DNA of 64,000 nucleotides, from contig CBDETK010000013.1 of the NCBI GenBank assembly GCA_965242865.1, positions 3,584,001 through 3,648,000 on the forward strand, written 5' to 3'. Made by a program: the position numbers and the translations under genes. Shown here piece after piece: positions 4,066-20,845 of this stretch. The DNA comes from Candidatus Latescibacterota bacterium. Its GTDB lineage: Bacteria; Latescibacterota; UBA2968; UBA8231. The first letter of the stretch is position 1. Every line of letters begins with the position of its first letter. The notes under the pieces were generated by a model that saw nothing but the letters and a program-made list of their open reading frames with translations, was not told the origin of the DNA and did no database searches.

Positions 4066-4115
4066 CTTGGAAGGCGGGTCGCCGGGGTCGTATAGAAGGG
4101 GGAACAGACTAATCA

Positions 4116-5516
4116 CTATCCTCGATCTACGAACTGTTTACCGTCTATCTCGTATTGCTTGAGCTTCCGCTGTAGATTTCTGCGGGTCAATTGTATCGCC
4201 GTCGCGGTCTGGCTTACGTTGCCGTTGCCCCTTTCTAAGGCGCGGCGGATAAAGATCCGCTCAAACTGCTCGCGCGCCTCGTGGAAGTGCTGCTGCGGAA
4301 TATCGTAGTGCGAATCCTCGTCGCCATAGAGCTGTGCCGCGTCACCGGCCAAGGATGGGGGCAGATATTCGAGTTTGATCGCGTCGCCTTTGGCCACGGT
4401 CATCGCCCGCATGATCGCGTTTTCCAATTCGCGCACATTGCCGGGCCAGTTGTGTTCCTCCAAACGCTGCATGGCCTCGCTGGTAAACCCCTCAATGCGC
4501 TTGCCCAGCACTCCGTTGTAGCGGTTGACGAAGAAGGCGCACAAGAGCGGCAGGTCGCTCGTGCGATCCCGCAGCGGCGGGATTTCAATGGTCAGCGCGT
4601 TGATGCGGAAGTAGAGATCTTCGCGGAAAAGGCCCTCCGCAATGCGGGCTTCGAGGTTTTGGTGGGTGGCGGTGATCAGGCGCACATCCACTTGCCGGGT
4701 CTGTGTCGATCCCACCGGCTCAAACTCCCCTTCTTGGAGCACGCGCAAGAGCCGAATCTGCATATTGGTTTCGAGGTCGCCGATCTCGTCGAGGAGCAAG
4801 GTGCCGCCGTCGGCCTCGGCAAAACGACCGGCGCGGCCGCGGACCGCTCCGGTAAAGGCTCCCTTGACGTGGCCGAAAAGTTCGCTCTCCAGCACGCCCG
4901 GCGACAAGGCGGCGCAGTTGCAGCGCACAAAAGGCTTGTCCGCCCGGTCGCTGGTGCTGTGGATGGCGTTGGCAACCAGCTCCTTGCCGGTCCCGCTCTC
5001 GCCCCGGAGCAGGACAGTGACCGGCGTGGGTGCCACGTCCCGGATGAGCTGGTAGAGCTGTCTCATGCTCTCGCTCCGGCCCACTAAATTGCCGAACTCG
5101 CCCCGTTGCCCCTGCCGCAGGGCCTCGTTTTCGCGGCGCAGCACCTGCAACTCCAAGATGCGATCGAGATGCGCCAGCACTTCCCCGATGTCAAAGGGCT
5201 TGGACAGATAGCCGTAGGCCCCGAGCTTGACGGCTTTTACCGCGCTTTCCACGTCGGCATAGGCCGTCAAGATGACGACCTCTTCGCGGCGTTGCTGCTT
5301 TTTGAAGATCTCCAAGAAGCCGAGCCCATCCATGCCCGGCATCCTCAAATCGAGGAGGATGAGATCGAATTCCTCGTTGTTCAGTAGCGTTAGGGCCGCC
5401 TTTCCACTGACGCAGGTAGCAACCTCCAAGCCCTCGCGGCGCAACAGAATGGCCGATAAATCCAGCAAGTCCCGCTCGTCGTCTATCATGAGTATCCTGC
5501 CCTTGCGTTTGCCCAT
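4116..5516 (-). CDS. Sigma54-dependent response regulator (NtrC family bEBP)
   Basis: Receiver domain (LLDLRMP), GESGTGKE, GAFTGA, LDEIG, WPGNVRELEN, Fis-type HTH. Confidence 0.95.
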   Translation of the reverse strand: MGKRKGRILMIDDERDLLDLSAILLRREGLEVATCVSGKAALTLLNNEEFDLILLDLRMPGMDGLGFLEIFKKQQRREEVVILTAYADVESAVKAVKLGAYGYLSKPFDIGEVLAHLDRILELQVLRRENEALRQGQRGEFGNLVGRSESMRQLYQLIRDVAPTPVTVLLRGESGTGKELVANAIHSTSDRADKPFVRCNCAALSPGVLESELFGHVKGAFTGAVRGRAGRFAEADGGTLLLDEIGDLETNMQIRLLRVLQEGEFEPVGSTQTRQVDVRLITATHQNLEARIAEGLFREDLYFRINALTIEIPPLRDRTSDLPLLCAFFVNRYNGVLGKRIEGFTSEAMQRLEEHNWPGNVRELENAIMRAMTVAKGDAIKLEYLPPSLAGDAAQLYGDEDSHYDIPQQHFHEAREQFERIFIRRALERGNGNVSQTATAIQLTRRNLQRKLKQYEIDGKQFVDRG

Positions 5517-5517
5517 G

Positions 5518-7662
5518 TCAATCGTTCCTCTCAGAGTTCGTGGTTAGTGGCCGCTGGCCGCTGCTTATTGTCGTAGGTAGATGGAGCGAAAAGTGCGTAC
5601 CTCGACCGGGGACGCTTTCGACCTCAATCCGACCGCCGATTTCCCGTATTTGCCGGTGGGCGATGGCCAACCCCAGTCCGGTGCCCTGCCCCGGCGGTTT
5701 GGTCGAGTAAAACGGCTCAAATATGTGCCGGATATGCGCTTGGGGAATGCCCGTACCGGTATCGTCGATCCCCACCACCACCCAATCATCCCGCTGCTCG
5801 GCCAAAATTAGCAGCTTGCCGCCCTCGGGCATGGCCGCAAAGGCATTGCTGATCAGGTTGAGAAACACATCCTTGAGCATGTCCCGATTCACCCACACTT
5901 GCGGCACCTCGTGCAGCCGGGCCTCAATGGCTATGCCGAGGTGATCGGCGTGTTTTTGTTCGAGGTCGATCAGTTGCCGTAGGATGCCCGCGGGGTCAAC
6001 CCACTCCTGCGTCTGCTGGGCGGGTCGGGCAAAGTCGAGCAGATTGACTACTCGTTCGTCGATCCGGCCGATAGCCGCGCCGAGGGGCCGGAGCGCTTGG
6101 TCCCGCCCCTCCACTTCCGCCGGGACAATCTGCGCCAACAACTCGTAGGCGTGCCGGATGATCGCCAGCGGGTTCTTGATCTCGTGCGCCACGCCCGCGG
6201 CCATCTCGCCGAGGGAGGCCAGCTTCTCGGACTGGACGTAGTGGAGCTCCAGCAGCTTGTGCTGGGTCTGGTCGTCGATCACCAGCAATAGATGCCCCGG
6301 CAAGGCCCCGGCCAAGTCCACGACCTTCAGGTTCCAAAACCGGGTGCCGCCTTGGGGGGACTTGATCTCCAAGTTGTCGATCGGCCGCGCCTTGGGGTTG
6401 CTTTTGATCCAGTCCCAAAGCTGCTGGCCCTCGGCCGTGTGTTCCCAAGAGCCAGCCTCGTCTTCGCCAAAGAGTTGGTGCCAAGCCTTGTTCACCCGCA
6501 CGGTTCGCCACGGCTGGGCCACCACCGCGAGGGCGAGGGGATTGTCCTCAATCAGCCGGTCGTTGAAGTTCAACTCGGCTTCCAGCGCGGCCTTGCGGGT
6601 TTCGAGGGCTTGGTTCATTTCGGTGAACGCCTGCCCCAGCTCCCACAGTTCGTCCTTTATGGCCGGCAGCTCCAGTGCAAACTCCTCGCCGGCCTGCGCG
6701 GCTCGCACCGCCTGCATCAGGCGATTGATGGGCCGAGTGATCGACCGCAGCAACAACAAGCCTAGCAAAATGGCCCCCGCGACCGAGGCGACCGTGATCC
6801 AGTTGGCACGGTGCTGCATCATCGCCACCAGCCCGAACGCCTCGCGTGCCTCCTGCTGTACCACCACGGTCCAGCCCCAGTCCGCAATGTACGCAAAGCC
6901 CGCTACCCACTCGCGTCCGTCTATGTCGCGCCATTGCCGGGTGCCATTGCCGCTTAGACGGGGCACGAATTGCGGATGGGTGGCGTCGAGATACACGTCT
7001 TGGCGCGCGGGAAAGGCGATATAGTGGCCCCGTGCGTCCAACAGCACCCCGCGGCCGGTATCGCCCAGCCGAATTTGGTCCACCTGCTGCCAGATTTCGT
7101 ACAGGGCAAACCGGGTGATCAAGGCACCGACCACTTGGTCGCCCTCTTTGACCGCCAAGCCAATAAACAGGCTCGGTTGCCCTTCGCGCTGGACCACTTC
7201 CGAAGCGTAGAATTTCTCTCGCTTCACCTGCGCCCACAGCACCCGGGCATGGGGCAGGTAATTGGGCGGCAGCCGATCGCCGCGCTGGAGTGGGGCTTGG
7301 ACATCGAGCACATTGGTGGCTTGGATTGTGCCGGCCGTATCCACGAAGCAGAGTTCGGCTACCGCGCCCAATTCCAACCCGACCTGACTCAACAGGCTCT
7401 GCCGACGCCAAGGGTCGCGGACCACATTCATGCTCTGGGCCAGCACCTTGAGGCTGGCGATGGGCTGGTCGAGAAAATGGTGGACCTCCTTGGCCGCCCG
7501 CTGGGCCACCTGCTGATGGGTGTTGAGCACGGCCTGCTCTAGCGCACTGCGCGCCGTGTACACGAGTACGCCGGCCACCAACAGCACGGGCACCAGCCCG
7601 ACGATCAGGTGATTGCCCAGCAGCCGCACCCACAGGCGATGTATGTTGGCGATGAATGTCAT
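5518..7662 (-). CDS. Sensor histidine kinase (Cache, HAMP, PAS-like, HisKA, HATPase)
   Basis: Two TM helices, AHEIKNPL H-box, NLISNA, DTGTGIP, FEPFYSTK, GTGLGL. Confidence 0.93.
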   Translation of the reverse strand: MTFIANIHRLWVRLLGNHLIVGLVPVLLVAGVLVYTARSALEQAVLNTHQQVAQRAAKEVHHFLDQPIASLKVLAQSMNVVRDPWRRQSLLSQVGLELGAVAELCFVDTAGTIQATNVLDVQAPLQRGDRLPPNYLPHARVLWAQVKREKFYASEVVQREGQPSLFIGLAVKEGDQVVGALITRFALYEIWQQVDQIRLGDTGRGVLLDARGHYIAFPARQDVYLDATHPQFVPRLSGNGTRQWRDIDGREWVAGFAYIADWGWTVVVQQEAREAFGLVAMMQHRANWITVASVAGAILLGLLLLRSITRPINRLMQAVRAAQAGEEFALELPAIKDELWELGQAFTEMNQALETRKAALEAELNFNDRLIEDNPLALAVVAQPWRTVRVNKAWHQLFGEDEAGSWEHTAEGQQLWDWIKSNPKARPIDNLEIKSPQGGTRFWNLKVVDLAGALPGHLLLVIDDQTQHKLLELHYVQSEKLASLGEMAAGVAHEIKNPLAIIRHAYELLAQIVPAEVEGRDQALRPLGAAIGRIDERVVNLLDFARPAQQTQEWVDPAGILRQLIDLEQKHADHLGIAIEARLHEVPQVWVNRDMLKDVFLNLISNAFAAMPEGGKLLILAEQRDDWVVVGIDDTGTGIPQAHIRHIFEPFYSTKPPGQGTGLGLAIAHRQIREIGGRIEVESVPGRGTHFSLHLPTTISSGQRPLTTNSERND

Positions 7663-7704
7663 CCTTTTATGATTTCAAAGGGCAACCACGTCATTGATTC
7701 CAAA

Positions 7705-7729
7705 GGGCAACCACGAGGGTTGCCCCTAC
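7705..7729 (-). repeat. GTAG-type REP palindrome (family B) supplying the SBP stop codon
   Basis: GTAGGGGCAACCCTCGTGGTTGCCC, with a partial tandem duplicate at 7670-7690. Confidence 0.6.
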
Positions 7730-9306
7730 GGTGCCCAGTACCATGCGGGCAAACTGCGGAAAATTCCCATTGGCACGACCGATTCCAGGCCCCGCAGCGG
7801 CTGCCGCACCGCGTACATGACCGGCTCTCGACAAATAAAAATGGTGGGATGATCCGTTAGCAGATGGCGATGGATACTCCGGTAGATCGCTATGGACGCG
7901 GCCTCGTCGTAGGCCACCCGACCGGCTTCGATCAGCCGATCCACTTCGGCATTGACATAACCCGACTCATTGCGGGCGTCCTGCGAATGCCATTCAGACG
8001 CGGCTACATCGGGATCGAGGACATTGTATCCTCTCTCCAATACCATGTCGAACCGCGACCTCACGGAAGAGAGCACCTGCAGCGGCGCGGTCTGCATGAG
8101 CAGGTGAATCCCTACTTCTTCCAAGTCTTTCCGCAACTGGGCCGCGATGTCGTGCCGATGCGGCATCTCCTTGGCCATGACCAAGGTCAATTCCAACGCA
8201 TCCCGCTCGCGCAACCCATCCCCGGCCCCATCCACCCAGCCGGCCGCTTGCAGGATGGCCCGGGCGCGCCGCTGGTCTTTGACCGGCGTGGGCACCTGCG
8301 GATCGCCATAGACCGAGCCGGGCGGAAAAGGCCCGGCCACAAAGACCGAGTCCGCCGTTGCTTCCCCGCCGAGTAGGTGCCATATCGCTCGGCGATCAAT
8401 CGCGTAATGGAGCACCGCTCGCACGCGCGGATCGCTCAACACCGATTCCGAGCGACAGTTTAATTTTAAGGCTGCATAGGCCGGACTCGCCCCTTTGAGC
8501 ACCTTGAAGGCCGAGTTGTCGGCGATGCTTTTCAGATCGTCGAGCGCGGCGGACGGGGCCACATCGCTTTCGCCGCGCATAAACGCGGCCCATGCGTAGC
8601 GCGTGTCTGGGTAATCGCCGCGCACCTCCACGGTGTCTAGGTACGGACGCCCCCCGTAATAGCCCTCAAAGGCTACCAACCGCACGTGATCCTCGCCGAC
8701 CCAATTGGCAAAGCGGAACGGCCCCGACCCGATGGGATGCCGATTGAAGGGCAACTCGTCTAGCCCATAGCCGGCCGCCAACTGCGGCTCGACGAGGTGC
8801 TTGGGCAGAATGTGCAACCGCAAGGGCACTAGTGCCGACCCTTGCGGTGGAGCGGCGTAGTGCAGCCGCACAATGTCGTGGCTGAGTGCCTCAATCCGAT
8901 CAAAGCGCAAATCCTCCCCGCGCCGCTGCTCCTTCATCAACTGGAGCGTAAAGACCACGTCCGCAGCCGTCACTGGCCGACCATCGTGGAACTGGGCATC
9001 AGATCGCAGCAAGATGTCCCAAAACTTTTTCCTAGGGCTGAATGGCCAAGCTACGGCCAGGGCCGGGGTAAGCTGACCGGTGGGCTCTTCCGTGAATAGG
9101 CGTTCAAAGAGCAGGTCCAATACCTCCGTGCTCACGGTGTGAGAGGCCGTGAGTGGATTGATCGGCTCCATGCCCCCGGTTGCCCCAATTCGCACCCGGC
9201 CCCCATAGAAAGGCCCATCGCGGTCAGGCGCGCTGCACCCGAGGACGAGCAAAAACGCCCATATCGCGGTTGTGCCTGTGCTTGGGGGCCGGGCTGGCCG
9301 GACCAT
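7726..9306 (-). CDS. ABC transporter substrate-binding lipoprotein, family 5 (oligopeptide/OppA-like)
   Basis: LGC lipobox, FHDGRPVTAADVVFT, PIGSGPFRF, DPRVRAVLHYAIDR. No permease genes adjacent. Confidence 0.88.
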   Translation of the reverse strand: MVRPARPPSTGTTAIWAFLLVLGCSAPDRDGPFYGGRVRIGATGGMEPINPLTASHTVSTEVLDLLFERLFTEEPTGQLTPALAVAWPFSPRKKFWDILLRSDAQFHDGRPVTAADVVFTLQLMKEQRRGEDLRFDRIEALSHDIVRLHYAAPPQGSALVPLRLHILPKHLVEPQLAAGYGLDELPFNRHPIGSGPFRFANWVGEDHVRLVAFEGYYGGRPYLDTVEVRGDYPDTRYAWAAFMRGESDVAPSAALDDLKSIADNSAFKVLKGASPAYAALKLNCRSESVLSDPRVRAVLHYAIDRRAIWHLLGGEATADSVFVAGPFPPGSVYGDPQVPTPVKDQRRARAILQAAGWVDGAGDGLRERDALELTLVMAKEMPHRHDIAAQLRKDLEEVGIHLLMQTAPLQVLSSVRSRFDMVLERGYNVLDPDVAASEWHSQDARNESGYVNAEVDRLIEAGRVAYDEAASIAIYRSIHRHLLTDHPTIFICREPVMYAVRQPLRGLESVVPMGIFRSLPAWYWAP

Positions 9307-9425
9307 TATGCCTCATTTCTGTGACGAGATATACTGAATACCGTCAGATAATAAGGCGCGTCGCTTTAGGACAAAAGCACCGTCTATAAGGCATGGCCCT
9401 TGCTACACGACACTACCCGGCCTTT

Positions 9426-11345
9426 TTAAGCATCTTCGGCCACCGGCCGGCTCTCCGCGGCAAAATGGTTGACAACGACATCAACCATTCGCTGCTGCCC
9501 CTCCACGGCAACAATCGCCACGGCCGGCAAGCCGAACGAAGCCTCCAAGCGCTCCAAGTGCGCCTTTATCTCATCCTCGCTCATTTGGCGAGAAGAAACC
9601 CAAGTTTTGCCATAGACCGAGCGAGCGTGTTTCTCCTTGTCGCTCATCGCCAGTAATATAACCGGGGCTTTGCCCAATATGCGGATGCCATCAAGGGTGT
9701 CTTGGATATACGCATCCGAATCCGTGCTGTTGACCACCAGAATGCAGGCGTCCGGTTTGGTCCCCAACAAGAAGTGGATCGACGGCTCGGTATGGGAGTT
9801 GTGGTTGGCGACATCGTAGGGTATGGTGCCCGACTGGCAGCCGACCATCATGATATCCGGTTTTTTCGCCGCGTTAATCTCGCGCATCTTGTGGTCTAGG
9901 TACGGGCCGTAGTATTGCAACGGCAGGTCTCTGGGCACGGCGTAGCCCATGGGAAAGGAAAAATCCATCCCGAACAGGGCCGAATGATGCTCCGTACCAA
10001 GCTGACCAACCTTGTATCCTTGCTCAATCAGCTTCTGCCGCAATGCGAGTTGCAAGGTGAACTTGCCCTGTTGAGAGCTCGTGCCAAACACCCCGACCAC
10101 CGGCACATCCACGGCGCGCTCGGAACCTTGGGCCGCAAGGCACCGTTGGACATCGGCAAAATCGAAATCCGGGAACTCCAAGTGCAACCCCTTGCTCCGC
10201 GCCAAGTCGTACAGGTCGGCGTAGGTCTCTAAATCAACCGCTAAGAAGCTGAACACGTTGAGCCCCCGTTCCAACGCCGTTTGTATCGCCTCGCGCAGCA
10301 AGTCCTTTTTGCCCAACCGGGATAGCTGATCTACGTACCCCAACACGAGGGTATCGGCCCCTTCGAGAGCGTCCCCGAGTTTGGGGACAATGCGCACACC
10401 TAACGGTTCGACGCCAATGGCCGCGCCAGCGTCCTTGCCCACCAAGCCTTTGCCGACCGGGTCGGCAATGCCAGCGATGGTGAAACGCAAATGCTTCGCG
10501 TGGCGCACCAGCGCATGCATTTCCTTGTTGTACGGATACAGGGCCGCCCGGCCAATCCACTCGTAGCTGGGAAAACCCGGCCGCTCGACCGTGACCGGCC
10601 CAGGATCCTCCGACTCTAAGGCGTTTGCCGCCAAAATCTCCCGCACTGGAGTCAGCCCTGCTTTGGGAAAGTGCTGGCGGATCAGGGCGACAATCGCCGA
10701 TACGTGGGGCGCGGCAAAACTGGTTCCGCCGGTGATCGTCTCCCCTCCGTTTAGCCAGCACAGACGCTGCGGATCGCCCCGGGCCACGCACTCAATGGCC
10801 TGCCCGGGTCGGTAGTAGTACCCGTAGCGGTCGTAGATTTTTCCCCAAGTGACGCCTATTACGTCGGCCAACTCGGCTGGGTAGCTCTCCAAGCCCTCGT
10901 TGTGCTGGGAACCGACCAAGATCAGATTGGCTGCAACGGCCTTGCGGCAGATCTCGGCCAAGGGCCTCTTAGACGCGGGGTCAATCGTCCCCAAGCTGAG
11001 ATTGACCACGTCCATGCCTTCTTCTATGGCCCAAGCGATGGCCGCGACCAGCGACTGTCCATCCGTAGTCAGCGACTCGTCGAAAATGCGGATCCCGTAG
11101 AGTTCGGCTTCCGGGGCTAGTTTGCGGATAATGCCGGCGCAGGCCGTACCGTGACCGGCCTGGTCGGAAAAGTCTCCCTCGCGTTGGATACCGCCGTCGG
11201 CAAGCGCACACAACCCAACTCCGCCGGCAATAGTGCCGATCTTGGGGTGATTGGGTTCAATACCGCTATCGACTACCGCGACCTTGACTCCGCGTCCGGT
11301 CAATCGGGTAAAGTCGAGCGTCTGCAACTGCTCATTGGTTCTCAT
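9426..11345 (-). CDS. S8 (subtilisin-like) peptidase fused to DUF1611-like P-loop domain
   Basis: VAVVDSG, HGTACAG and GTSFAAP catalytic triad. C-terminal VGVFGTSSQQGKFTLQL. Confidence 0.85.
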   Translation of the reverse strand: MRTNEQLQTLDFTRLTGRGVKVAVVDSGIEPNHPKIGTIAGGVGLCALADGGIQREGDFSDQAGHGTACAGIIRKLAPEAELYGIRIFDESLTTDGQSLVAAIAWAIEEGMDVVNLSLGTIDPASKRPLAEICRKAVAANLILVGSQHNEGLESYPAELADVIGVTWGKIYDRYGYYYRPGQAIECVARGDPQRLCWLNGGETITGGTSFAAPHVSAIVALIRQHFPKAGLTPVREILAANALESEDPGPVTVERPGFPSYEWIGRAALYPYNKEMHALVRHAKHLRFTIAGIADPVGKGLVGKDAGAAIGVEPLGVRIVPKLGDALEGADTLVLGYVDQLSRLGKKDLLREAIQTALERGLNVFSFLAVDLETYADLYDLARSKGLHLEFPDFDFADVQRCLAAQGSERAVDVPVVGVFGTSSQQGKFTLQLALRQKLIEQGYKVGQLGTEHHSALFGMDFSFPMGYAVPRDLPLQYYGPYLDHKMREINAAKKPDIMMVGCQSGTIPYDVANHNSHTEPSIHFLLGTKPDACILVVNSTDSDAYIQDTLDGIRILGKAPVILLAMSDKEKHARSVYGKTWVSSRQMSEDEIKAHLERLEASFGLPAVAIVAVEGQQRMVDVVVNHFAAESRPVAEDA

Positions 11346-11360
11346 CTGGGTCGTCCTTTT

Positions 11361-13091: not shown

Positions 13092-13118
13092 TTTGCCCTC
13101 CCTTGCGCTAGGGGCCGA

Positions 13119-13463
13119 TCAGTAGAGTAGGTGCTTGACCGAACTCAAATCGGCCTTGTTGGTGATGACATCGTAGTACTTCACGCCTTTGAAGTTGAAA
13201 GCGAGCGGCTCGACCAAGTCGAACCAAGGCTTCAACTCGTTGTAGAAGATGACCGAAAGATGCGGCTTCTCCTGCACGGGAATATGGACGTTGACGACCG
13301 TGTTGTTCTCATCAATTACAAACACGGCTGGGGTCGGTTCGCCAAAGGGCGTCTCGTTGAAGTATCCGGTCGTGTCCGACGCCACCGGAAACGCAATCTG
13401 AAAAGTCCGCACATAGTCCGAGAACTTCCGCTTGCTCATCCTCGCGATGCAGTAGATGGGCAT
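13119..13463 (-). pseudogene. C-terminal fragment of redoxin/thioredoxin-fold protein
   Basis: FPVASD...TPAVFVID pattern with no N-terminal part and no RBS. Confidence 0.45.
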
Positions 13464-13568
13464 CGGCTGATGACGGCAACCTGCGCGACGCGTACGATGC
13501 TGTGGGGTGCTGTCGATGGGAACGGTGGACGATGCGGGAAACTAATCTGCGAGTTGCGGAACCGCCGT

Positions 13569-14216: not shown

Positions 14217-14228
14217 GGTCTCCTTATT

Positions 14229-15404
14229 CTACTGGCCGCCCCGCGAGCGGCTGAACGCACTCTTGCCAGCTCCCGTGCGATCGTTGATTCGATAGATGGC
14301 TACGTATGGATCGCTCGTCTCGCCGGTCGCTTCGTCGAGGGCATCCTCAACCACAAAATACAGTTCCATACCGTCAACCGTCAGCAGTCTATGGCTGGCG
14401 GGTAATCTGATGCCGTCGGCAACCGAATGGCCGTCCTTGTAAAAGAGATTTAGATAGTATTCCGGCTTACCGTTAACCACACGCCGGTATTGTGTAAGCA
14501 CCAGCAGGTCGGGACCGAATTCATAGAGTCGGGAACGGACAATGTGCTCGGCAAACCATTCGTTGTGCCGAGCGGTCCAATTGACCGGATCCAAGTCGGC
14601 GGGAAAAGGCTTGATCCGGTCCCGGTGCTTAGACTGGTACTCGCTAAACCAAGTCCGTTCCAACTGGCCCTGCTCGCTGTATTGGTGGATCTCGTAGGTC
14701 GTCGGGTAGATGAAGTAGAAGCCGCCTCCCCGCTTGGGAGTGAGCACGGTGTTATGATAGCGATTCAACGCCCGTCCGGTTCGTTTGTCTTCGACCGGAT
14801 ACAGGCCGGCAACTTTATTGAGGTTGTCGTCGAAGCGGAACAGCGCGTATTGGCCTTCCGCTCGCACCCCGGCCGAGCCGGCGTCAATGACGTCCACTTG
14901 TGCGCCATAAATATGGCCACCCGTGGTGAGCACAATATGGTCAATGAACTCAGGGTTGGGATCTGGCACCTGCCGCTTGAATTTATATGAATCGCCAGAG
15001 AAGAAGAGATATTTCCTACTTTCTCCCAAGCTGTAGAAATAGAAGTCTCCGTTAGGGGCCAACCGTGGTCTTAATGGATTGAAGTATTCGTCCTCGGCTC
15101 CTCCACGCACTCCAATTTGCCGCAGGTAATGGCCCTCGGCATCGGTCTGAAAAATCATATTCTGGATACCATCTAAAACAATGAGGTTGCCCTTAGCATC
15201 AACGAAGACGTAGCTAATCTGGCCCACAATGACATGCTCAGGCATTTGCAAATGGATGTCCCGATCCTTGACGAATGCCTCGTCAAACGTAAGGTCGGCT
15301 GCCGGTGGGGTGATTTCTATCCGGCCAGCAGGCTGGTCATCACCGCATCCGACCAGAGGCACCATAGTACCGACGATTGCGATGAACTGTATCCGATTTT
15401 TCAT
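14229..15404 (-). CDS. 6-bladed beta-propeller lipoprotein
   Basis: LVGC lipobox. GHYLRQIGVRGGAEDEY resembles the G-x-G-P-x-E-Y motif of this family. Confidence 0.7.
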   Translation of the reverse strand: MKNRIQFIAIVGTMVPLVGCGDDQPAGRIEITPPAADLTFDEAFVKDRDIHLQMPEHVIVGQISYVFVDAKGNLIVLDGIQNMIFQTDAEGHYLRQIGVRGGAEDEYFNPLRPRLAPNGDFYFYSLGESRKYLFFSGDSYKFKRQVPDPNPEFIDHIVLTTGGHIYGAQVDVIDAGSAGVRAEGQYALFRFDDNLNKVAGLYPVEDKRTGRALNRYHNTVLTPKRGGGFYFIYPTTYEIHQYSEQGQLERTWFSEYQSKHRDRIKPFPADLDPVNWTARHNEWFAEHIVRSRLYEFGPDLLVLTQYRRVVNGKPEYYLNLFYKDGHSVADGIRLPASHRLLTVDGMELYFVVEDALDEATGETSDPYVAIYRINDRTGAGKSAFSRSRGGQ

Positions 15405-15476
15405 AACATTTTCCTTGTGGATGGTTGGTGTTGAGCCACTATGTATTCATAAGGCTCAGTACCCGAAGATTCAGAG

Positions 15477-15512
15477 GAGTGGACCGGGGATCACTTTGAC
15501 CCCGGTCCACTC
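15477..15512. terminator. Strong hairpin downstream of peptide cassette 1
   Basis: GAGTGGACCGGGG / CCCCGGTCCACTC perfect arms. Near-identical copy at 20217-20248. Confidence 0.65.
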
Positions 15513-15598
15513 GCTCGTCAACGGCTCGGTGGTTGTTTAGCTACCCCTCCAGTGGCGATTCTATCGAATCAAGCAGGGCGGAAGGGCCTGCTGACTGA

Positions 15599-15742
15599 CT
15601 AGCCGCAGCAGCAGCAGAGGCGGCCCTCTCCAGAGCAATCAGCTTTCGGAGGACTGCTTTCGCAGATGGAGAGGGCGAATTCCAGCTGCGCCTCGACGGC
15701 CTGGCCGTAGGTGGCGCGTTGGGGTTTGTGCAGAGCGATCAT
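15599..15742 (-). CDS. Cys-rich RiPP-like precursor peptide (47 aa)
   Basis: RBS AAGGAG then MIALHKPQRATYGQAVEAQLEFALSICESSPPKADCSGEGRLCCCCG. Confidence 0.7.
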   Translation of the reverse strand: MIALHKPQRATYGQAVEAQLEFALSICESSPPKADCSGEGRLCCCCG

Positions 15743-15938
15743 GATTATGCTCCTTGAGTAAGTGAATGGTTCTATTGAACCAAAGGGGGACGCCAAGGGC
15801 GTCGCGAAAGGGCCTCCTTATGAGAACCCTTGATAGGGCTGATACAGGCAGCGTCATGTTACGAGAAGGAACGGCAGATGCCTGCGTGGCTTCAATGGCC
15901 GAGCCGTAGCTTGTATTTACGGATGGATGCAGGGACAT
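15639..15938 (-). CDS. Precursor-like ORF sharing the leader motif (probably degenerate at the 3' end)
   Basis: RBS GAGGAGG then MSLHPSVNTSYGSAIEATQ. The 3' part overlaps the next peptide out of frame. Confidence 0.4.
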   Translation of the reverse strand: MSLHPSVNTSYGSAIEATQASAVPSRNMTLPVSALSRVLIRRPFRDALGVPLWFNRTIHLLKEHNHDRSAQTPTRHLRPGRRGAAGIRPLHLRKQSSES

Positions 15939-15971
15939 GGCTTCAGACCTCCTCGACTGTGAACGCTAGCT

Positions 15972-16052
15972 TTACCAGCGCGCCCCGAAAAAGGGCCACT
16001 GCACAGACCGCCGAAAGCGGCGGCGGTAACGGCGGTTGATAACGCGGTTCAT
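15972..16052 (-). CDS. Short Arg-rich ORF (26 aa), first after the sigma54 promoter
   Basis: RBS GAGGAGG then MNRVINRRYRRRFRRSVQWPFFGARW. Confidence 0.35.
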   Translation of the reverse strand: MNRVINRRYRRRFRRSVQWPFFGARW

Positions 16053-16149
16053 TGTTCCCTCCTCTTATGGGGTGGATGGAAAGCCTGCCCGTCGGCCCCT
16101 ATTCCTTAGTGGCCAACAACAGCTTGCTTTCGTGTTCACTTACTATATA

Positions 16150-16165
16150 AGCATATTCCGTGCCA
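16150..16165 (-). promoter_or_regulatory. Sigma54 -24/-12 promoter (module 1)
   Basis: TGGCACGGAATATGCT with GG-N10-GC spacing. Confidence 0.8.
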
Positions 16166-16256
16166 AACTGATTCTTGATAAAAGATAAACTACTAATAAA
16201 CATATACTTATAAAAAATTAAGGCACTTCATGCCAAACGCTGAATCGCGCTTCAAT

Positions 16257-16344
16257 TGCACCCTTTCGACGCACCTAACCCCCCATTTGCTCTCTATTTC
16301 TATTTTTTACAACAGTTTAGAGCAAGTGCGTTAAAAAGGACGCA
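16257..16344. promoter_or_regulatory. Putative bEBP enhancer sites (module 1)
   Basis: TGCACCCTTTCGACGCA and TGCGTTAAAAAGGACGCA start 70 bp apart. Same arrangement in module 2. Confidence 0.65.
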
Positions 16345-16603
16345 GTGCGTCAAGGTCGACTTGGTCCACGACGAGTAGCGGAGTTAGAAACCAATCCTTT
16401 TTTAATGCGCTAACACCCATTCTCGCCTACTGCGTTCTGGCCGAGGCGTCCCCCTTAGTGTGCGTCTAAGACGGGAGGAGAATGGGGAGTGGAGGAATTG
16501 AAATTGAAACCGGACAACTTTACAGGTGAATGGACCGGACTGCGGATCTGGGCCTTAGAGCCTCTTTTCGTCCTCGCAATTTACGAGGTGGAGTAGCACC
16601 CTT

Positions 16604-17644
16604 TTATCTTAGAGATGAGAGATGCGAAAGCACCTCACCCAAGAGCGCGAACTCATCCTTTCTCAGGCGGCATAGTTCATCTTGGGCAAACGTTCGACCT
16701 TCCTTGGCCTTTTTGCCTCTCATCTGGTTTCTCAACACAACCATGCGGATCTGATTTGCGCGGCTGGCGATATCCGAGTATCTCCGGGCAAAACCGACCT
16801 CTTCGGGCAGGATCCCTTGGCCCTCCATGTACTCCAGCCGAGCGACCATGCACTTTTTGTGCTCCCAGAAAATACGCAAGGAGATAAGCAGCTCGTCCTC
16901 GGTCGCCTCCGGCTCATCAAGCAGCCCTGCGAGGAACTGGTAAGTATCCATCCCCCACAGGTCGCCGCGGTTTCTCGGTTCGGCGAGTATCCGCAACCGC
17001 GTTGAGGTGTTGCGAGACAGGTAGAGGTCGGTCAATTCCTCCCGGGCCTGCACTAAGTCAAAAGCACACTCAGCAGACGACCGGTAGTAGTAGAGCACAA
17101 CTTGAGGATTCTCAACCTTGTCCTGTAGCCAATCAGGGCCACCCTCCGGCCTAAACGCCGTGGATAACGCCCGCTCAAACTCGGCGAACCCCACGGCGAA
17201 ACGGCCGTAGCTCCCATCGCGGCCGTAGCCCGACGCAGTAAAAGTGCCTTGTCGCCAGTCAAAGCCGCTCAAAAGCAGTTCGTGAAGAAAATGAACCCGT
17301 TGGTAATACACGCCCTGTGGAATGTAAAAGTAGTCCACATCCAACTGCACGTAGTAATCCCTTTCGAGGCACTCCAAGACGAATTTTGTGACTTCATCCG
17401 GCTTGTCCCCGGCCAGTCGCCGGTCAACCCTATTGGATTCGAGCAAAGGGCAGGTGGAGAACTCTCGATAAAACGGATGGAGGTAGAAATTCAGCCCCCG
17501 TCCCTCAAACTGTCGCAACTGGATATAGTGACAATAGAACCACGGCCGGTACGCTGTGTCGCGGGCGAGGATCGAAAGCGGGTATAGATGGTGCATATAC
17601 CCGGTGATGGGCGGTTTGCCGATGGGCAAACACTTTTTCGTCAC
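16604..17644 (-). CDS. Hypothetical protein, possible BtrH-N/C39-like fold
   Basis: DYFYIP...HFLHELLLSGFD His/Asp motif. Translationally coupled to the glycosyltransferase. Confidence 0.5.
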   Translation of the reverse strand: MTKKCLPIGKPPITGYMHHLYPLSILARDTAYRPWFYCHYIQLRQFEGRGLNFYLHPFYREFSTCPLLESNRVDRRLAGDKPDEVTKFVLECLERDYYVQLDVDYFYIPQGVYYQRVHFLHELLLSGFDWRQGTFTASGYGRDGSYGRFAVGFAEFERALSTAFRPEGGPDWLQDKVENPQVVLYYYRSSAECAFDLVQAREELTDLYLSRNTSTRLRILAEPRNRGDLWGMDTYQFLAGLLDEPEATEDELLISLRIFWEHKKCMVARLEYMEGQGILPEEVGFARRYSDIASRANQIRMVVLRNQMRGKKAKEGRTFAQDELCRLRKDEFALLGEVLSHLSSLR

Positions 17645-18900
17645 GACGCGATCCTCGCTTTCGCGTCCGTGGTTCCTTGGAGGAGACGCATTAGCCGCCG
17701 TGCGGAAGCAGACCAGCTAAATCGAGGTCGATCCGGGGGGATTTGGGGCGGAAAACCAACCGTATAGGCTTGAGCCAATAGCCTCACCAGCGAATCAGCA
17801 TCGTCGAGTCCGTAATACCGCCCCTGCTTGCCTACCACCTCGTTCATTATCGGAATGTCGGGAACAATGACTTCCGTCCCGCAGGCCAACGCCTCCACCG
17901 CTGGCAGGCAAAAGCCCTCATCTACCGACGAGATCACCAGTGCTGCGGCACTGTGGTATAGAGCAGCCAGTTCGTCGTCGTCAACCCGACCGAGGAACCG
18001 GACTTGCTCCCCCAAGGCATTGGCTGCGACGGACCGTTCCAATTCGCTTTGGTACGCCCCGTAATCCCCCACCATCACCAACGGAGGACACAGCCCCCGC
18101 TCGGCCTTGAGCTCGGCCAACACCGAAAAGAGCCAGTCCAACCTTTTGCGCTTGTGTGCTAGCCCTACAAAGAGGAAGAACGGGGATTTTAGGCCGTGCT
18201 GGACCAGTACTCGGGCGATGGTTTCGCCATCCCGCTGGCCGCTGAAAATGCGCTCGTCAGCCGCCCCCGACACCACATCAATCTTCTCGTTGGAGATGCC
18301 GAGTATCTGTACAATGTCTTGCTTGACCGTATTGGAAACAGTGATCACCCCTTCGCATTGGGTCGCTAAACGTCTGTTCATAGCCCAGAAATAGTGGTGG
18401 AACACTTCTTTGCCTTCGGGCACATCCCCAAATCCAACTGTGTTGTGTCCAAGACGCTCACACGCCATCCTCATTTGCTCAAACTCCGACCGGCCGAATT
18501 TGGCTTGGAACGCCGCATCCGTATAGGTCGATAGATCGGGGTGCTTGAGCCGGATTAGGTCGTGGATAGTGAATATGTAGGGAACGGGCAGCAACGGATC
18601 AACGATATAATGGATTGAGTAGTACAAATTGACCCCTTCCCGGATAAGCCAATTCCGCAACCACGACGAATCGCGCACAAATCCACCGTCGTCCGGCACT
18701 TCCACGAAGCGGAGCCGACGAGTCAAACGCGGATTTTTCAGATCGGCTGCGATTTCACCACTGCGTCCCGGCCAAGCGATCACGGTCAGGCGGTAATCTC
18801 CATCGATTTCGTCGGCATCCAGCGCGTGCAACAGGGAAGTGCCATAGCGATAGATGCCGCTATAGTGGGTCGTGCGTAGGTCAAAGGCTAAATGGGTCAT
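17641..18900 (-). CDS. Glycosyltransferase family 4
   Basis: FTIHDLI, VITVSNTVKQDI, EGFCLPAVEALACG. Confidence 0.9.
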   Translation of the reverse strand: MTHLAFDLRTTHYSGIYRYGTSLLHALDADEIDGDYRLTVIAWPGRSGEIAADLKNPRLTRRLRFVEVPDDGGFVRDSSWLRNWLIREGVNLYYSIHYIVDPLLPVPYIFTIHDLIRLKHPDLSTYTDAAFQAKFGRSEFEQMRMACERLGHNTVGFGDVPEGKEVFHHYFWAMNRRLATQCEGVITVSNTVKQDIVQILGISNEKIDVVSGAADERIFSGQRDGETIARVLVQHGLKSPFFLFVGLAHKRKRLDWLFSVLAELKAERGLCPPLVMVGDYGAYQSELERSVAANALGEQVRFLGRVDDDELAALYHSAAALVISSVDEGFCLPAVEALACGTEVIVPDIPIMNEVVGKQGRYYGLDDADSLVRLLAQAYTVGFPPQIPPDRPRFSWSASARRLMRLLQGTTDAKARIAS

Positions 18901-18954
18901 GGTATCTCACTCCTTAGCAACGGGAATAGGGAAGCCTAGCAAGTTCTCATGTTG

Positions 18955-19392
18955 TTAGCGGTCGGCTGGAATTTCCCGCTCCTTCTGCACCAACAGCGTT
19001 GCAGCACCCCCAGCCAACAACAAACCGCGCAACAGTGCCCAACCCAGCGAAGCACCCTCGTCGCCACCAAAACAACCGCACGTCACCTCGTTGCCGCGGT
19101 ACATATTGATGCCGAGCGCCGCACTAAAAACCACCAGTAGCCCCAAGATGACCAAGGCGTTACTGCGCGACCAGATGCCCAAGAGCAGAAGGCCGCCGGC
19201 AATCAGTTCAACCCAGACGACCGACAGCGCAAACGGCGCAGCCCAATCCACCGGGAGCATATCAAAGGCCGCGACCGTCTCGACGAAAGACGGTATTTGC
19301 ACGAGCTTTGCACTCCCCGCCCAAACAAAGACACCGCCCAACACCAGCCGGACCGTCAGAGCCAGATAGGGCCTGAGTGCAAGTCTGTCCAT
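18955..19392 (-). CDS. MauE/DoxX family redox membrane protein
   Basis: RLVLGGVFVWAGSAK, ELIAGGLLLLG, TCGCFG. ATG overlaps the rhodanese stop. Confidence 0.85.
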   Translation of the reverse strand: MDRLALRPYLALTVRLVLGGVFVWAGSAKLVQIPSFVETVAAFDMLPVDWAAPFALSVVWVELIAGGLLLLGIWSRSNALVILGLLVVFSAALGINMYRGNEVTCGCFGGDEGASLGWALLRGLLLAGGAATLLVQKEREIPADR

Positions 19393-19868
19393 TAGAAAGG
19401 ACCCTCCGATTCCACGGGATAACCCGCTTCTTCCCATTGGGGAAATCCGCCCGCGAAGACGTAGATCTGCGTAAAATCCATCTCCGTTGCGAGCTTTTGC
19501 GCCAGTTTGGAGCCCAAGTTACACGTCGTCCCTGAACAGTAAACGACCAGCGCGGTATCCTTGGACAAGTCGGCCAATTCCGCGCCAAAAGCGGCGAGAA
19601 TCTCCGACGGTGGGACATTAAGAGCCCCGGGCACATGCCCCAACTGGTAGGGCCAAGAAGACCGAGCGTCCACGAACACAGCCGCCCTTTGGTCCAAGAG
19701 CCGTTTGGCCGTTGCTAAATCAATCAGATGCACACCATTTTCGGGCCGCTGGACCTCTTCTATTGCCAAGCTATGCAGTCCGCCGCTGGAGACGCCGATC
19801 GCCACTACCAGCAATGCCTTTCCAACAATTCGCTTCATCACAGCGAATCCCCTTTCTCCGGTAGTCAA
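19392..19868 (-). CDS. Rhodanese-like protein with N-terminal signal/TM
   Basis: FVDAR, GHVPGALN, VVYCSGTTC, FAGGFPQW. Confidence 0.85.
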   Translation of the reverse strand: MTTGERGFAVMKRIVGKALLVVAIGVSSGGLHSLAIEEVQRPENGVHLIDLATAKRLLDQRAAVFVDARSSWPYQLGHVPGALNVPPSEILAAFGAELADLSKDTALVVYCSGTTCNLGSKLAQKLATEMDFTQIYVFAGGFPQWEEAGYPVESEGPF

Positions 19869-20137
19869 ACCCCTATTGGCGGTACTTTGCCGCGCACGAA
19901 TTCGGCGATGGAACGCACCGACACAAACCGTTCCGCCCGCAGTTCCTCGTCTTCCACATCAATGGCAAAGTGCGTTTCCAAGGCCATGACGAGCTGTAGC
20001 ATGACTATTGAATCAGCCCCCAGACCATCACCCAACAGCAACTCGTCGTCCGCGATAGCCTCCGGTTCGATCTCCAGTTCAAGAGCTTGGACGATAACCT
20101 GTTTGATCTGTGCTTCGAGTTTCATCTCGATGTCCAT
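19865..20137 (-). CDS. Acyl carrier protein
   Basis: Acidic 90 aa protein with LGADSI phosphopantetheine motif. Confidence 0.85.
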   Translation of the reverse strand: MDIEMKLEAQIKQVIVQALELEIEPEAIADDELLLGDGLGADSIVMLQLVMALETHFAIDVEDEELRAERFVSVRSIAEFVRGKVPPIGV

Positions 20138-20216
20138 GATCGCCTATTCTTCCGTTTGCGGCGCACGAAACATGCTTCGTGAGGGCATGCTTTAGAAATA
20201 CCCGAAGATCAGCGGA

Positions 20217-20248
20217 GTGGACCGGGGATCACTTTGACCCCGGTCCAC
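20217..20248. terminator. Hairpin downstream of peptide cassette 2
   Basis: GTGGACCGGGG / CCCCGGTCCAC, duplicate of 15477-15512. Confidence 0.65.
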
Positions 20249-20269
20249 GCGCTCATCAACGGCTCCGTT

Positions 20270-20375
20270 CTACCGAACTAAGTCGTGCCAGCAAGACCGA
20301 CAAGGAACGATGGCGCCCTACGTGTCAACACAGGCCGGACCGTAGCTTGTATTTACGGATTGGATGCAGAATCAT
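20270..20375 (-). pseudogene. Degenerate precursor paralog
   Basis: Near-identical to the 5' end of the 15938 ORF. Removing one base gives MILHPSVNTSYGPACVDT*GAIVPCRSC (frameshift plus TAG). Confidence 0.55.
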
Positions 20376-20409
20376 GGCTTCAGACCTCCTCTACCTTGGC
20401 TACCCAGGG

Positions 20410-20475
20410 CTAGGCCAGCGGGGACTGTTCGTCGAGCCGACGATACCTGATTTCGGCTAAGGGGTGCAGAGTCAT
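20410..20475 (-). CDS. Short leader-motif ORF (21 aa)
   Basis: RBS GAGGAGG then MTLHPLAEIRYRRLDEQSPLA. Confidence 0.4.
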   Translation of the reverse strand: MTLHPLAEIRYRRLDEQSPLA

Positions 20476-20565
20476 GGCGGACCTCCTCTTTATAGGGTGG
20501 ATGGAAAGCCGGCCCTTCAGCAGGTGCGGCCAAACGGCTTGCTTTCGCGCTCACCTATACACCAT

Positions 20566-20581
20566 AGCACATTCCGTGCCA
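20566..20581 (-). promoter_or_regulatory. Sigma54 -24/-12 promoter (module 2)
   Basis: TGGCACGGAATGTGCT with GG-N10-GC spacing. Confidence 0.8.
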
Positions 20582-20670
20582 AACGGAGCCGCAAAGCCGT
20601 AATTGATTGTTATACAAAGGGTTATAGAAAATGGGGGCCTTTCGTCCAAGTCGCCGAGTCGCGCTTCCAT

Positions 20671-20758
20671 TGCACCCTTTTGACGCACCTAACGACCTGT
20701 TTTATTTGTATCTCACGTCTTTACAATGGCTTAGAGCAAGTGCGTCAAAAGAGCCGCA
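20671..20758. promoter_or_regulatory. Putative bEBP enhancer sites (module 2)
   Basis: TGCACCCTTTTGACGCA and TGCGTCAAAAGAGCCGCA start 70 bp apart. Confidence 0.65.
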
Positions 20759-20845
20759 GTGCGCTAAAAGTGACCGCGGGGGCCGTTGCGTGAGTTGCTC
20801 TCAATCGTTACGCTCAGGTTTATCCTTCGTTTGAGGAGTCGCGCC

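Follow-up and report, generated by a model that had tools for sequence, protein, structure and literature searches.

What do the genes between positions 4116 and 20770 of this 64,000-nucleotide stretch of Candidatus Latescibacterota DNA produce, and to what do the regulators encoded at their downstream end respond? We call the whole stretch (contig CBDETK010000013.1, positions 3,584,001 to 3,648,000) the window. A first, sequence-only reading had proposed that the genes form a locus for the production of a Cys-rich peptide, and this is borne out by our finding of an open reading frame (ORF) for a precursor of 47 amino acids (aa) with six Cys, a member of a family of 53 clusters. We consider it probable, judging from the sequence, that the locus is a cluster of the ribosomally synthesised and post-translationally modified peptide (RiPP) type, and that, under sigma-54 control dedicated to it, small disulfide-rich peptides of a new family are made. 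As is general for RiPP clusters, the short precursor, conserved in its leader and variable in its core, is encoded beside a peptidase, tailoring enzymes and an exporter. The genes that carry this reading are given here, with the results of Pfam scans which, like the NCBIfam scans, were run on 14 ORFs of the window.

19865-20137, minus strand: acyl carrier protein (ACP) with a GADS phosphopantetheine site (Pfam PP-binding 1.8e-08)
15599-15742, minus strand: precursor gene, 47 aa, with a MIALHKPQRATYGQAVEAQ leader and a core with six Cys ending CCCCG; AAGGAG ribosome-binding site upstream
11361-13091, minus strand: ATP-binding cassette (ABC) exporter, transmembrane and ATPase parts fused, without a C39 peptidase domain (Pfam ABC_membrane 4.6e-43, ABC_tran 1.8e-31)
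9426-11345, minus strand: S8-DUF1611, a fusion of an S8 protease with a DUF1611/TIGR04066-like P-loop domain (Pfam S8 2.5e-25, DUF1611 2.5e-16, DUF1611_N 5.7e-09)

The full precursor reads MIALHKPQRATYGQAVEAQLEFALSICESSPPKADCSGEGRLCCCCG, and its gene is found only in the second of two promoter modules (module 2, see below). A profile search of 5.8 billion proteins gathered 53 cluster representatives, none of them named or carrying a Pfam domain, and the precursors gave zero NCBIfam matches at E up to 1. Mean identity across the representatives is 89% over the first 19 residues (the leader, which has no Cys in any of them) and 33% over the remaining core. Four Cys are present in 39 representatives and six in 10 (the remaining 4 look frame-shifted), and in 48/53 the C-terminus is CC plus 0-1 residue. 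This pattern is the signature of a RiPP precursor, predicted to form two or three disulfides. Orthologous loci hold 1 to 4 precursor genes, with the ribosome-binding site conserved. Among the 132 genomes of the class that were searched, the family is confined to the genus of the window, where 9 of the 31 genomes have it; one weak match of 21 residues was seen in another genus.

A related strain shows how sharply leader and core are divided. On one contig of run X6 (likeness threshold 85) the enhancer, the promoter and precursor codons 1-19 are kept, codon 20 through the hairpin is replaced by 1167 other letters, and most of the propeller gene that follows has diverged. Close relatives of the window stretch occur in runs X6-X9, labelled sponge metagenome; in X6 the flanks are 90-99% alike and the cassette is a different one.

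The S8 domain is the likely cytoplasmic leader peptidase. Hydropathy gave no N-terminal hydrophobic segment for S8-DUF1611, and 7/7 paralogues keep the Asp26/His65/Ser209 triad and the GTSxxQGKxT loop unchanged. Against NCBIfam the protein scores 139.1 bits with QhpE (cut-off 165) and 122.8 bits with TIGR04066 (cut-off 200; E 1.6e-35 over the full profile), and its nearest clusters in the Atlas are TIGR04066/DUF1611, at 0.95. The nearest named NCBIfam relative of the DUF1611 part is the N-acetyltransferase DgcN, a weak match. The ACP reaches 19.2 bits with TIGR04069 (cut-off 70), and generic ACP models score higher.

How would such a peptide be expressed? Two paralogous stretches, 15405-16420 and 20138-20800, each contain an enhancer pair, a conserved AT-rich block and a sigma-54 promoter, then a short ORF behind a strong ribosome-binding site, and a GC-rich hairpin:

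20671-20765, minus strand: enhancer of module 1, its two inverted elements as in module 2
20566-20581, minus strand: sigma-54 promoter of module 1, TGGCACGGAATGTGCT
20215-20250, minus strand: hairpin of module 1, before the ACP operon; -44.1 kcal/mol, z -5.30, 93% identical to the module 2 copy
16257-16351, minus strand: enhancer of module 2, two inverted 18-nucleotide (nt) elements of the TGCGTC-N6-GACGCA type, ~100 and ~175 nt upstream of the promoter
16150-16165, minus strand: sigma-54 promoter of module 2, TGGCACGGAATATGCT (-24 GG / -12 GC), one mismatch to consensus
15477-15512, minus strand: hairpin of module 2, GC-rich, after the precursor gene; -41.2 kcal/mol, z -4.75

A loose sigma-54 consensus scan of the whole window gave 24 matches vs 31 expected; there is no enrichment, so that the promoter motif is no proof by itself. 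Neither the exact promoter block nor a 15-nt enhancer block (ACGCACTTGCTCTAA) occurs anywhere in the 6.0-Mb genome other than at the two modules, and 11/11 promoter regions, taken from the window and from three related genomes, can be aligned and share one architecture of enhancer, AT-rich block and -24/-12 elements. The features expected of sigma-54 promoters are thus present here together: GG and GC spaced as in TGGCAC-N5-TTGCW, inverted repeats upstream, rpoN (one in the genome) and a bacterial enhancer-binding protein (bEBP) with a GAFTGA loop. The two promoter/enhancer modules named by the sequence-only reading hold up on these results, as does its hairpin in each module, both copies lying far below their shuffles in energy (0/200 equally stable in either case).

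A hairpin follows the precursor gene in 12/12 genes examined, and 13 aligned copies share a 13-bp stem with compensatory changes at 4 pairs. No U tract comes after it, and we infer that it acts as an attenuator or transcript stabiliser, as is common after precursor genes. An Rfam scan of 15300-20900 (E up to 1) returned no family. Consensus folding of the 5' untranslated regions gave 4 weak pairs (-1.5 kcal/mol), and a sigma-70 promoter scan of 3900-20900 gave 4 sites vs 6.6 expected, none of them in the gap before the solute-binding protein gene. The outer stem of the hairpin (GAGTGGACC...GGTCCACTC; 15471-15510 and 20209-20250) is conserved in sequence far beyond pairing needs in both modules, and might serve for protein binding or processing; it is also where public assemblies break or loop (run X1 joint).

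Several other short ORFs lie within the modules:

20325-20475, minus strand: short ORFs of module 1, namely MTLHPLAEIRYRRLDEQSPLA (20410-20475) and a frame-shifted leader-like relic (20325-20375)
15972-16052, minus strand: first small ORF after promoter 2, 26 aa, with a strong ribosome-binding site; coding doubtful
15639-15938, minus strand: leader-like upstream ORF (MSLHPSV..YGSAIEA..), its N-terminus resembling the leader

The sequence-only reading had placed short ORFs in both modules, and so they are; the 47-aa precursor, in module 2 only, is conserved as a protein, and the remaining short ORFs are doubtful. No Cys-rich precursor was found in module 1, whose 21-aa ORF (MTLHPLAEIRYRR...) recurs in two other genomes ahead of a resistance-nodulation-division (RND) efflux pump. 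We considered the leader-like ORF at 15639-15938 as a second precursor and rejected it: its frame is lost after the first few codons in 5/11 copies and the Cys-rich end is present in none, so that it is probably the relic of a duplicated precursor gene. The first small ORFs were likewise rejected as conserved proteins, their frames differing between copies (26, 29, 46, 64, 66 and 140 aa in length), with start and ribosome-binding site kept after 6/6 peptide-type promoters. All these short ORFs share the start M-x-(A)-L-H, which suggests that promoter and leader start were duplicated as one unit.

What, then, sets these promoters in action? Three genes at the downstream end encode a putative sensory pathway:

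7726-9306, minus strand: orphan solute-binding lipoprotein (SBP) of family 5 (peptide/nickel/opine type); Pfam SBP_bac_5 1.8e-57, lipobox LVLGC
5518-7662, minus strand: histidine kinase with periplasmic dCache_1, HAMP, HisKA and HATPase domains; dCache_1 54.4 bits (cut-off 45), HATPase_c 1e-25, HisKA 3e-08
4116-5516, minus strand: bEBP with receiver (REC), AAA+ and Fis-type helix-turn-helix (HTH) domains; Pfam Sigma54_activat 3.4e-69, Response_reg 1.7e-28, HTH_8 1.3e-09

The GAFTGA loop, Walker A motif and receiver Asp are all visible in the bEBP translation, and the Cache domain of the kinase is flanked by two hydrophobic segments. ORF and Pfam scans found no permease or ATPase importer genes in the locus. 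The best NCBIfam matches of the SBP are to nickel, oligopeptide, opine and glutathione binders, all far below cut-off. These family matches agree with the orphan peptide-type SBP, Cache kinase and bEBP that had been named from the sequence alone, and so does the synteny: SBP, kinase and bEBP stand at the downstream end of the cassettes in 8/8 loci examined in full (the window, six with precursors and one without). In two fragmented genomes the SBP gene adjoins S8-DUF1611 on the same contig. SBP orthologues occur in 10/31 genus genomes, where 8 genomes have peptide and SBP, 1 (fragmented) peptide only, 2 SBP only and 20 neither; we read this distribution as a pattern, not a test, because the relatives are not independent. 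The 21 genus genomes without the locus contain no SBP paralogue at E 1e-30. By these gene-neighbourhood measures the triad is dedicated to the locus. Identity to the window copy is 78-82% for the SBP, 84-89% for dCache, 83-86% for the kinase core and 85-87% for the bEBP AAA+ domain; the SBP and dCache are no more variable than the kinase core, and the sensors are therefore not hypervariable, unlike the precursor cores.

The gene directly after the precursor encodes a propeller:

14229-15404, minus strand: six-bladed beta-propeller lipoprotein of NHL type, lipobox LVGC; Pfam DUF5128 7.8e-05, 22.4 bits vs cut-off 22.9

Among sequences in the PDB it matches the NHL domains of TRIM2/3 (E 1.3e-05). 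A propeller gene follows the precursor in 11/12 cases examined, and propellers, 60-91% identical from one cassette to another, are the most diverged of the cassette genes; in the two cassettes whose cores are identical, the propellers are 91% alike.

Reduced loci in related genomes show what can persist without a full production set. In G107, assembled as one contig and 96% complete, we found ACP-MauE-rhodanese and the triad alongside 2 intact precursors and 9 propeller genes, but nothing matching S8-DUF1611 at E 1e-20. For G019, with its one precursor, the S8/DUF1611 match is only 27-35% and contains an internal stop; G004 retains a 69-residue fusion remnant inside the locus. The complete genome G009 has enhancers, promoters, two propellers and the triad, and no precursor. 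In G007, G019 and G004 a promoter of the 21-aa-ORF type precedes a split AcrB-like RND pump. These loci weaken the case that S8-DUF1611 is indispensable for the peptides. Propeller arrays and a pump persisting without production genes look, in this comparative analysis, like protection plus sensing, a combination familiar from bacteriocin systems, and the product of the locus is possibly a bacteriocin with protection genes. In G107 the nine propellers are in tandem (L124/L125, ~15400-35300 of the joined stretch), six of them spaced by repeats of ~1.1 kb without a clear same-strand ORF, and this genome carries one decayed precursor besides its two intact ones.

The remaining genes encode tailoring and redox proteins:

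19392-19868, minus strand: rhodanese, secreted or membrane-anchored, its gene overlapping the MauE gene; Pfam Rhodanese 1e-16, N-terminal hydrophobic segment
18955-19437, minus strand: MauE/DoxX-type membrane protein with a CGCFG motif; Pfam MauE (PF07291) 4.5e-29, 101.8 bits vs cut-off 27, three hydrophobic segments
17641-18900, minus strand: family 4 glycosyltransferase (GT4); Pfam Glycos_transf_1 4.3e-23, Glyco_transf_4 1.3e-09
16604-17644, minus strand: 346-aa protein, distantly BtrH_N/DUF4872-like; own Pfam score with BtrH_N (PF14399) 13.7 bits vs cut-off 29.7
13569-14216, minus strand: 215-aa membrane-anchored thioredoxin-like protein with CGAC (MauD/TlpA-like), one N-terminal hydrophobic segment
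13119-13463, minus strand: 114-aa ORF, a 5'-truncated remnant of a TlpA/ResA-like thioredoxin gene, weak ResA match

The 346-aa protein had been called BtrH-like from its sequence. At the profile level this kinship stands; its own score falls below the Pfam cut-off and the catalytic Cys is not conserved. Of its 29 relatives, 14 homologues were aligned and 9 of these match BtrH_N (best E 2.7e-06), and in the Atlas the protein lies beside BtrH_N clusters at 0.98. With hhalign, comparison to three canonical BtrH_N+DUF4872 neighbours of other S8-DUF1611 genes gave 95.4% probability (E 2e-08, residues 88-339), and comparison to a single canonical BtrH protein gave 20%. A search of PDB sequences (E up to 1) gave 0 matches. 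Within the family His121 and Asp129 are conserved, Ser24 in YPLSI is invariant and no invariant Cys is present, making the protein a candidate carrier-protein-dependent transacylase of a Ser type, or a non-catalytic relative. The GT4 gene travels with the 346-aa gene in two other genomes, and glycosyltransferases of other families accompany S8-DUF1611 elsewhere.

MauE is predicted to have a role in disulfide formation, as has been proposed for MauE proteins (PMC7794033). The same work, using decRiPPter, lists candidate Streptomyces RiPP families with MauE and MauD homologues (PMC7794033), so that the presence of MauE with RiPP genes is not by itself a novelty. The rhodanese matches the NCBIfam rhodanese/DsbD-like TsoB at 5.7e-16, below cut-off. 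The 215-aa protein, which is the "CxxC protein" of the sequence-only reading, has no Pfam or NCBIfam match, and a search of PDB sequences found nothing below E 0.9; it aligns over 162 residues with a TlpA-like orthologue (E 8e-06), CGAC standing opposite CQPC. Its gene follows the propeller gene in several cassettes of orthologous loci. Intact TlpA-like orthologues have 238 aa, a membrane anchor, CQPC and a Redoxin match of 31.3 bits, and the window keeps the last 114 codons. Compared with three related genomes, a deletion at 13119-13569 has removed the N-terminal half of this gene together with a third sigma-54 promoter/enhancer and an ORF of 31-33 aa (MTLHPLVQIRYIFG...), so that the exporter and S8-DUF1611 genes would now depend on read-through from promoter 2. 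At this junction the related strain X6 has 270 letters vs the 140 of the window.

All credible genes between 4116 and 20137 are on the minus strand in the ORF list of the window, and they are transcribed in the order ACP, rhodanese, MauE, GT4, 346-aa protein, propeller, 215-aa protein, 114-aa ORF, ABC exporter, S8-DUF1611, SBP, kinase, bEBP; the gene content, order and strand given by the sequence-only reading are correct on these scans. So are its borders, because the flanking genes (aldo-keto reductase, NHL protein, and an AAA-ATPase_like protein with a PDDEXK_9 domain) are unrelated and on the other strand. Its statement that a radical SAM enzyme is absent also holds, since 0 of the 20 PF04055 matches of the genome fall within the window, the nearest being ~190 kb off. 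Hydropathy and sequence reading gave no export signal for S8-DUF1611, the 346-aa protein or GT4, and the locus can therefore be described as a predicted cytoplasmic set, an exporter and an extracytoplasmic redox/propeller set. The NHL-repeat protein just past the bEBP gene (3095-3973, plus strand; DUF5128 match of 36 bits) is a second propeller-type gene at the border. At the other edge lies the AAA-ATPase_like + PDDEXK_9 gene (20786-22582, plus strand), which has 3 copies in G019, there between cassettes; genes of this kind may mark or mediate cassette shuffling.

How widely is this set of genes distributed? A scan for S8-DUF1611 with one genome per species gave 79 loci, 46 with a full-length fusion and the rest with the S8 part only or a partial fusion. 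The 46 come from genomes titled Latescibacterota, Gemmatimonadota, Bacteroidetes, Melioribacteraceae and Rosettibacter. Flanks of 5 kb or more on each side were available for 37 of the full-length loci; of these, 33 have an ACP and 28 an ABC exporter no more than 5 kb away, and tblastn detects a relative of the 346-aa protein in 15. S8-DUF1611 and the ACP are thus, by gene proximity, a module across Latescibacterota, Gemmatimonadota and Bacteroidota-type genomes. We ran Pfam on 136 ORFs around 13 diverse loci (5 long edge ORFs, of 141 in all, being left out). Radical SAM lies beside the fusion in 4/13, one from Latescibacterota and three of Bacteroidota/Ignavibacteria type. The other 9/13 have none, and hold BtrH_N+DUF4872, glycosyltransferases of various families, MauE, rhodanese, redoxins, DUF5128 propellers and RND/MacB pumps. 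By its gene content the window locus belongs to this subtype without radical SAM. Three loci (L061, L073 and L074, from Bacteroidetes, Melioribacteraceae and Rosettibacter) share an ABC exporter, HlyD, a 130-aa ORF, radical SAM, a 520-aa protein without Pfam match, the fusion, an ACP and a streptomycin-adenylyltransferase-like protein; this set is a separate subtype containing radical SAM.

There are three S8-DUF1611 copies in the genome of the window. The second (L024, G000:C13:2911000-2930999; ~60% identity) lies with GT4, a histidine phosphatase, a BtrH-like protein, ACP, HTH and TPR proteins, two CAAX-type proteases and HlyD; simple scans found neither a sigma-54 promoter nor a Cys-rich ORF there. 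Accompanying the third (L025, G000:C13:3221000-3240999; 36% identity) are a divergent bEBP of its own, two sigma-54-like promoters (TGGCATACATCTTGCT and TGGCACACATTTTGCT) and a protein kinase-like gene. A 58-aa ORF in L025, ending ...CVYSTDKCCDPD, could be another precursor type.

We propose the following working model for the window locus. Phosphorylated bEBP would bind the two inverted 18-nt sites upstream of each promoter and activate sigma-54 RNA polymerase. Transcripts would mostly stop, or gain stability, at the hairpin, with read-through expressing the downstream genes, giving a high ratio of peptide to enzyme transcripts. In the cytoplasm the core would be decorated by GT4 and by an ACP-dependent step using the DUF1611 domain and the BtrH-like protein; the S8 domain would cut the leader somewhere after the invariant EAQ, and the ABC exporter would move the core into the periplasm. 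There MauE, the rhodanese and the membrane-anchored thioredoxin-like proteins would set 2 or 3 disulfides, and the propeller lipoprotein would bind the variable core, most likely for self-protection, with a role as folding or handling partner as the alternative. The SBP and Cache kinase would sense a periplasmic ligand. We suggest tentatively, and with rather less than even confidence, that this ligand is a peptide of the same family, the cell's own or a neighbour's, recognised via constant features. A bolder version, which is speculative and which we think improbable, is that the locus represents a new RiPP class of the Fibrobacterota-Chlorobiota-Bacteroidota (FCB) group: a glycosylated, disulfide-knotted peptide bearing an ACP-borne acyl or aminoacyl group, added via DUF1611 and a Cys-less BtrH-like transacylase without radical SAM, with hypervariable cores, each matched to a propeller lipoprotein of its own, as strain-specific weapons or identity tags in symbiont populations, and the triad detecting the constant moiety, so that cells would step up both production and protection in response to such peptides from kin or rivals.

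Several of our observations weigh against this model. G107 and G019 have intact precursors without a close S8-DUF1611; it may therefore be that the protease/exporter module is dispensable, or else these two genomes are non-producers. We saw no diversification of the sensors in step with the cores. Propeller similarity correlates only weakly with core similarity (Spearman 0.38 over 55 non-independent pairs, the propeller-less precursor left out), and propellers also occur in other S8-DUF1611 loci, which fits processing as well as protection. The 346-aa protein, without the canonical Cys nucleophile, may not be catalytic, and one orthologous locus is without GT4 and has a different BtrH-like paralogue at 32% identity. 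Lastly, half of the TlpA-like gene and a promoter have been lost, and the window copy may therefore be impaired.

This last point leads to the possibility that the copy in the window is a decaying, non-producing remnant kept for protection or sensing only, in keeping with the deleted half-gene, promoter and small ORF, with the relic ORFs that are all that module 1 holds, and with the reduced loci of related genomes. We regard this as decidedly improbable: all other genes are open and full length, catalytic residues are intact, the precursor is intact with its 6 Cys, and a second thioredoxin-like gene remains. Still less credible is a peptide that is not released at all and serves as the small cross-linked partner of the periplasmic propeller in a functional complex, as in amine dehydrogenases. 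The S8 domain is closest to QhpE (139 bits), MauE and a MauD-like thioredoxin are present, and each precursor is paired with a propeller; but the cores are hypervariable and without conserved Trp or acidic cross-link partners, unlike an enzyme subunit, there is no QhpD-type radical SAM nor any other dehydrogenase subunit, and in some genomes propellers outnumber precursors. A quinone-cofactor subunit was considered and is unlikely, the cores having no conserved Trp.

On what the triad senses, the readings lie closer together in probability. It could respond to an unrelated periplasmic cue (nutrient or cell-wall peptides, a metal-chelate, envelope stress) that times production with no product feedback. 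Such a cue would be compatible with sensors that are conserved whatever the core sequence, with the many ligands bound by family-5 SBPs (and the varied, sub-threshold NCBIfam matches of this one), and with the triad persisting where no precursor was found. It fits less well with the lack of an SBP paralogue in genus genomes without the locus, and with an SBP that is never away from the cassettes in the loci examined; we take it to be possible and on balance unlikely. A closed autoinduction loop, in which the exported mature peptide binds the SBP and acts through the Cache kinase and bEBP on both promoters, was the inference of the sequence-only reading; its purpose would be signalling, not killing. 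Many modified peptides, such as nisin and subtilin, do induce their own synthesis, and here the triad is dedicated to and co-located with the cassettes, the SBP is a lipoprotein of a peptide-binding family with no permease, and the unique enhancer and promoter blocks point to a regulon limited to these promoters. Pherotype systems, however, usually show receptor divergence, and here SBP and dCache are not more variable than the kinase core although the peptide cores are only 33% identical; G009 keeps promoters, propellers and triad without a precursor; and a defensive purpose is suggested by the diverged tandem propeller arrays and by an RND pump driven from the same type of promoter. We therefore think that a closed loop is unlikely, and keep to the looser proposal that peptides of this family, whether self-made or not, may be recognised through what is constant in them.

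Our search of the literature found no paper that treats these parts as a RiPP system: papers on DUF1611 were unrelated, those naming TIGR04066 only list it, and nothing pertinent came up for sigma-54 together with RiPP precursors. The listings and passages covered on Latescibacterota biosynthetic clusters, among them passages of PMC9426513, do not describe such a system. A RiPP cluster as such is of a known kind; this one has an unnamed precursor family, a regulatory design that is unusual, and an uncharacterised maturation set (S8-DUF1611, ACP, BtrH-like). The maturation set is widespread in phyla with hardly any cultured members. With a conserved leader, a single protease domain and compact operons, heterologous reconstitution is feasible, and the clean enhancer/promoter modules offer a testable example of three-component sigma-54 control of a peptide natural product. 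The cassette pattern (core and propeller swapped together, propeller arrays, sensing without producing) gives a handle on strain competition in Latescibacterota.

How does the locus compare with known systems? Its kinship to the clostridial CLI_3235 type, put forward in the sequence-only reading, stands for the shared S8/TIGR04066-like/ACP/ABC set and fails as to membership of a TIGR04065/04068 system. The name CcpM, which that reading also used, matched no paper or result of this analysis. The 'sactipeptide-like' clusters of Firmicutes, for example in Roseburia intestinalis L1-82, are described as five genes encoding the radical SAM protein TIGR04068, TIGR04066, the ACP-related TIGR04069, a subtilase and an ABC transporter (PMC4573289). 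Set beside the gene set described there, the window likewise brings together a subtilase, a DUF1611/TIGR04066-like protein, a small carrier protein and an ABC exporter. It differs in scoring below every curated cut-off, its TIGR04066 part being a relative and not an equivalog, in having protease and DUF1611 fused, and in adding BtrH-like, GT4, MauE, rhodanese, thioredoxin-like and propeller proteins. None of the three profiles that had been suggested as a check (TIGR04065, TIGR04066, TIGR04069) reaches its cut-off; a search of the entire genome (E up to 1) gave no TIGR04065 precursor, and the best TIGR04068 score in the genome is 86.1 bits vs a cut-off of 500, far from the window.

Maturation of the small subunit of quinoprotein amine dehydrogenase uses the protease QhpE, the exporter QhpF and the radical SAM enzyme QhpD, and MauE/MauD serve methylamine dehydrogenase. 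The window resembles these systems in its cytoplasmic subtilisin-like protease, ABC exporter, and MauE with a thioredoxin-like partner, and in that a small Cys-rich polypeptide would meet a periplasmic propeller. It is distinguished by lacking radical SAM, flavoprotein and dehydrogenase subunits and by hypervariable cores without conserved Trp; with QhpE below its cut-off and no dehydrogenase subunit families among the 14 proteins scanned, the locus does not qualify as one for quinohemoprotein amine dehydrogenase (QHNDH) maturation. Glycocins such as sublancin are made from a precursor with an S-glycosyltransferase, thiol-disulfide oxidoreductases, an exporter and an immunity protein. Similarly, the window has a glycosyltransferase, disulfide-forming proteins, an exporter and a candidate protection protein for a peptide with two or more disulfides. 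Here, however, the glycosyltransferase is of family 4 and not SunS type, the leader peptidase is S8 and not a C39 domain on the exporter, glycosylation is a prediction, and the ACP, DUF1611 and BtrH-like components have no glycocin counterpart.

BtrH and CtaG, of the butirosin and closthioamide pathways, are carrier-protein-dependent transacylases with a Cys-His-Asp triad, Cys11-His128-Asp144 in CtaG (PMC7183216). The window places an ACP gene beside a BtrH_N/DUF4872-like protein in which the His/Asp region of the triad aligns; it departs from BtrH and CtaG in a 346-aa family without invariant Cys and in an acceptor that would be a ribosomal peptide. We found no published example of BtrH-type transfer to a ribosomal peptide. 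For the regulatory genes the nearest parallel is AioX-AioS-AioR of arsenite oxidation, a three-component sigma-54 system of periplasmic binding protein, kinase and bEBP. Both encode an orphan binding protein, a kinase and an NtrC-type activator beside sigma-54 target promoters; in the window the binding protein belongs to family 5, the kinase has a dCache domain of its own, and the targets are peptide cassettes.

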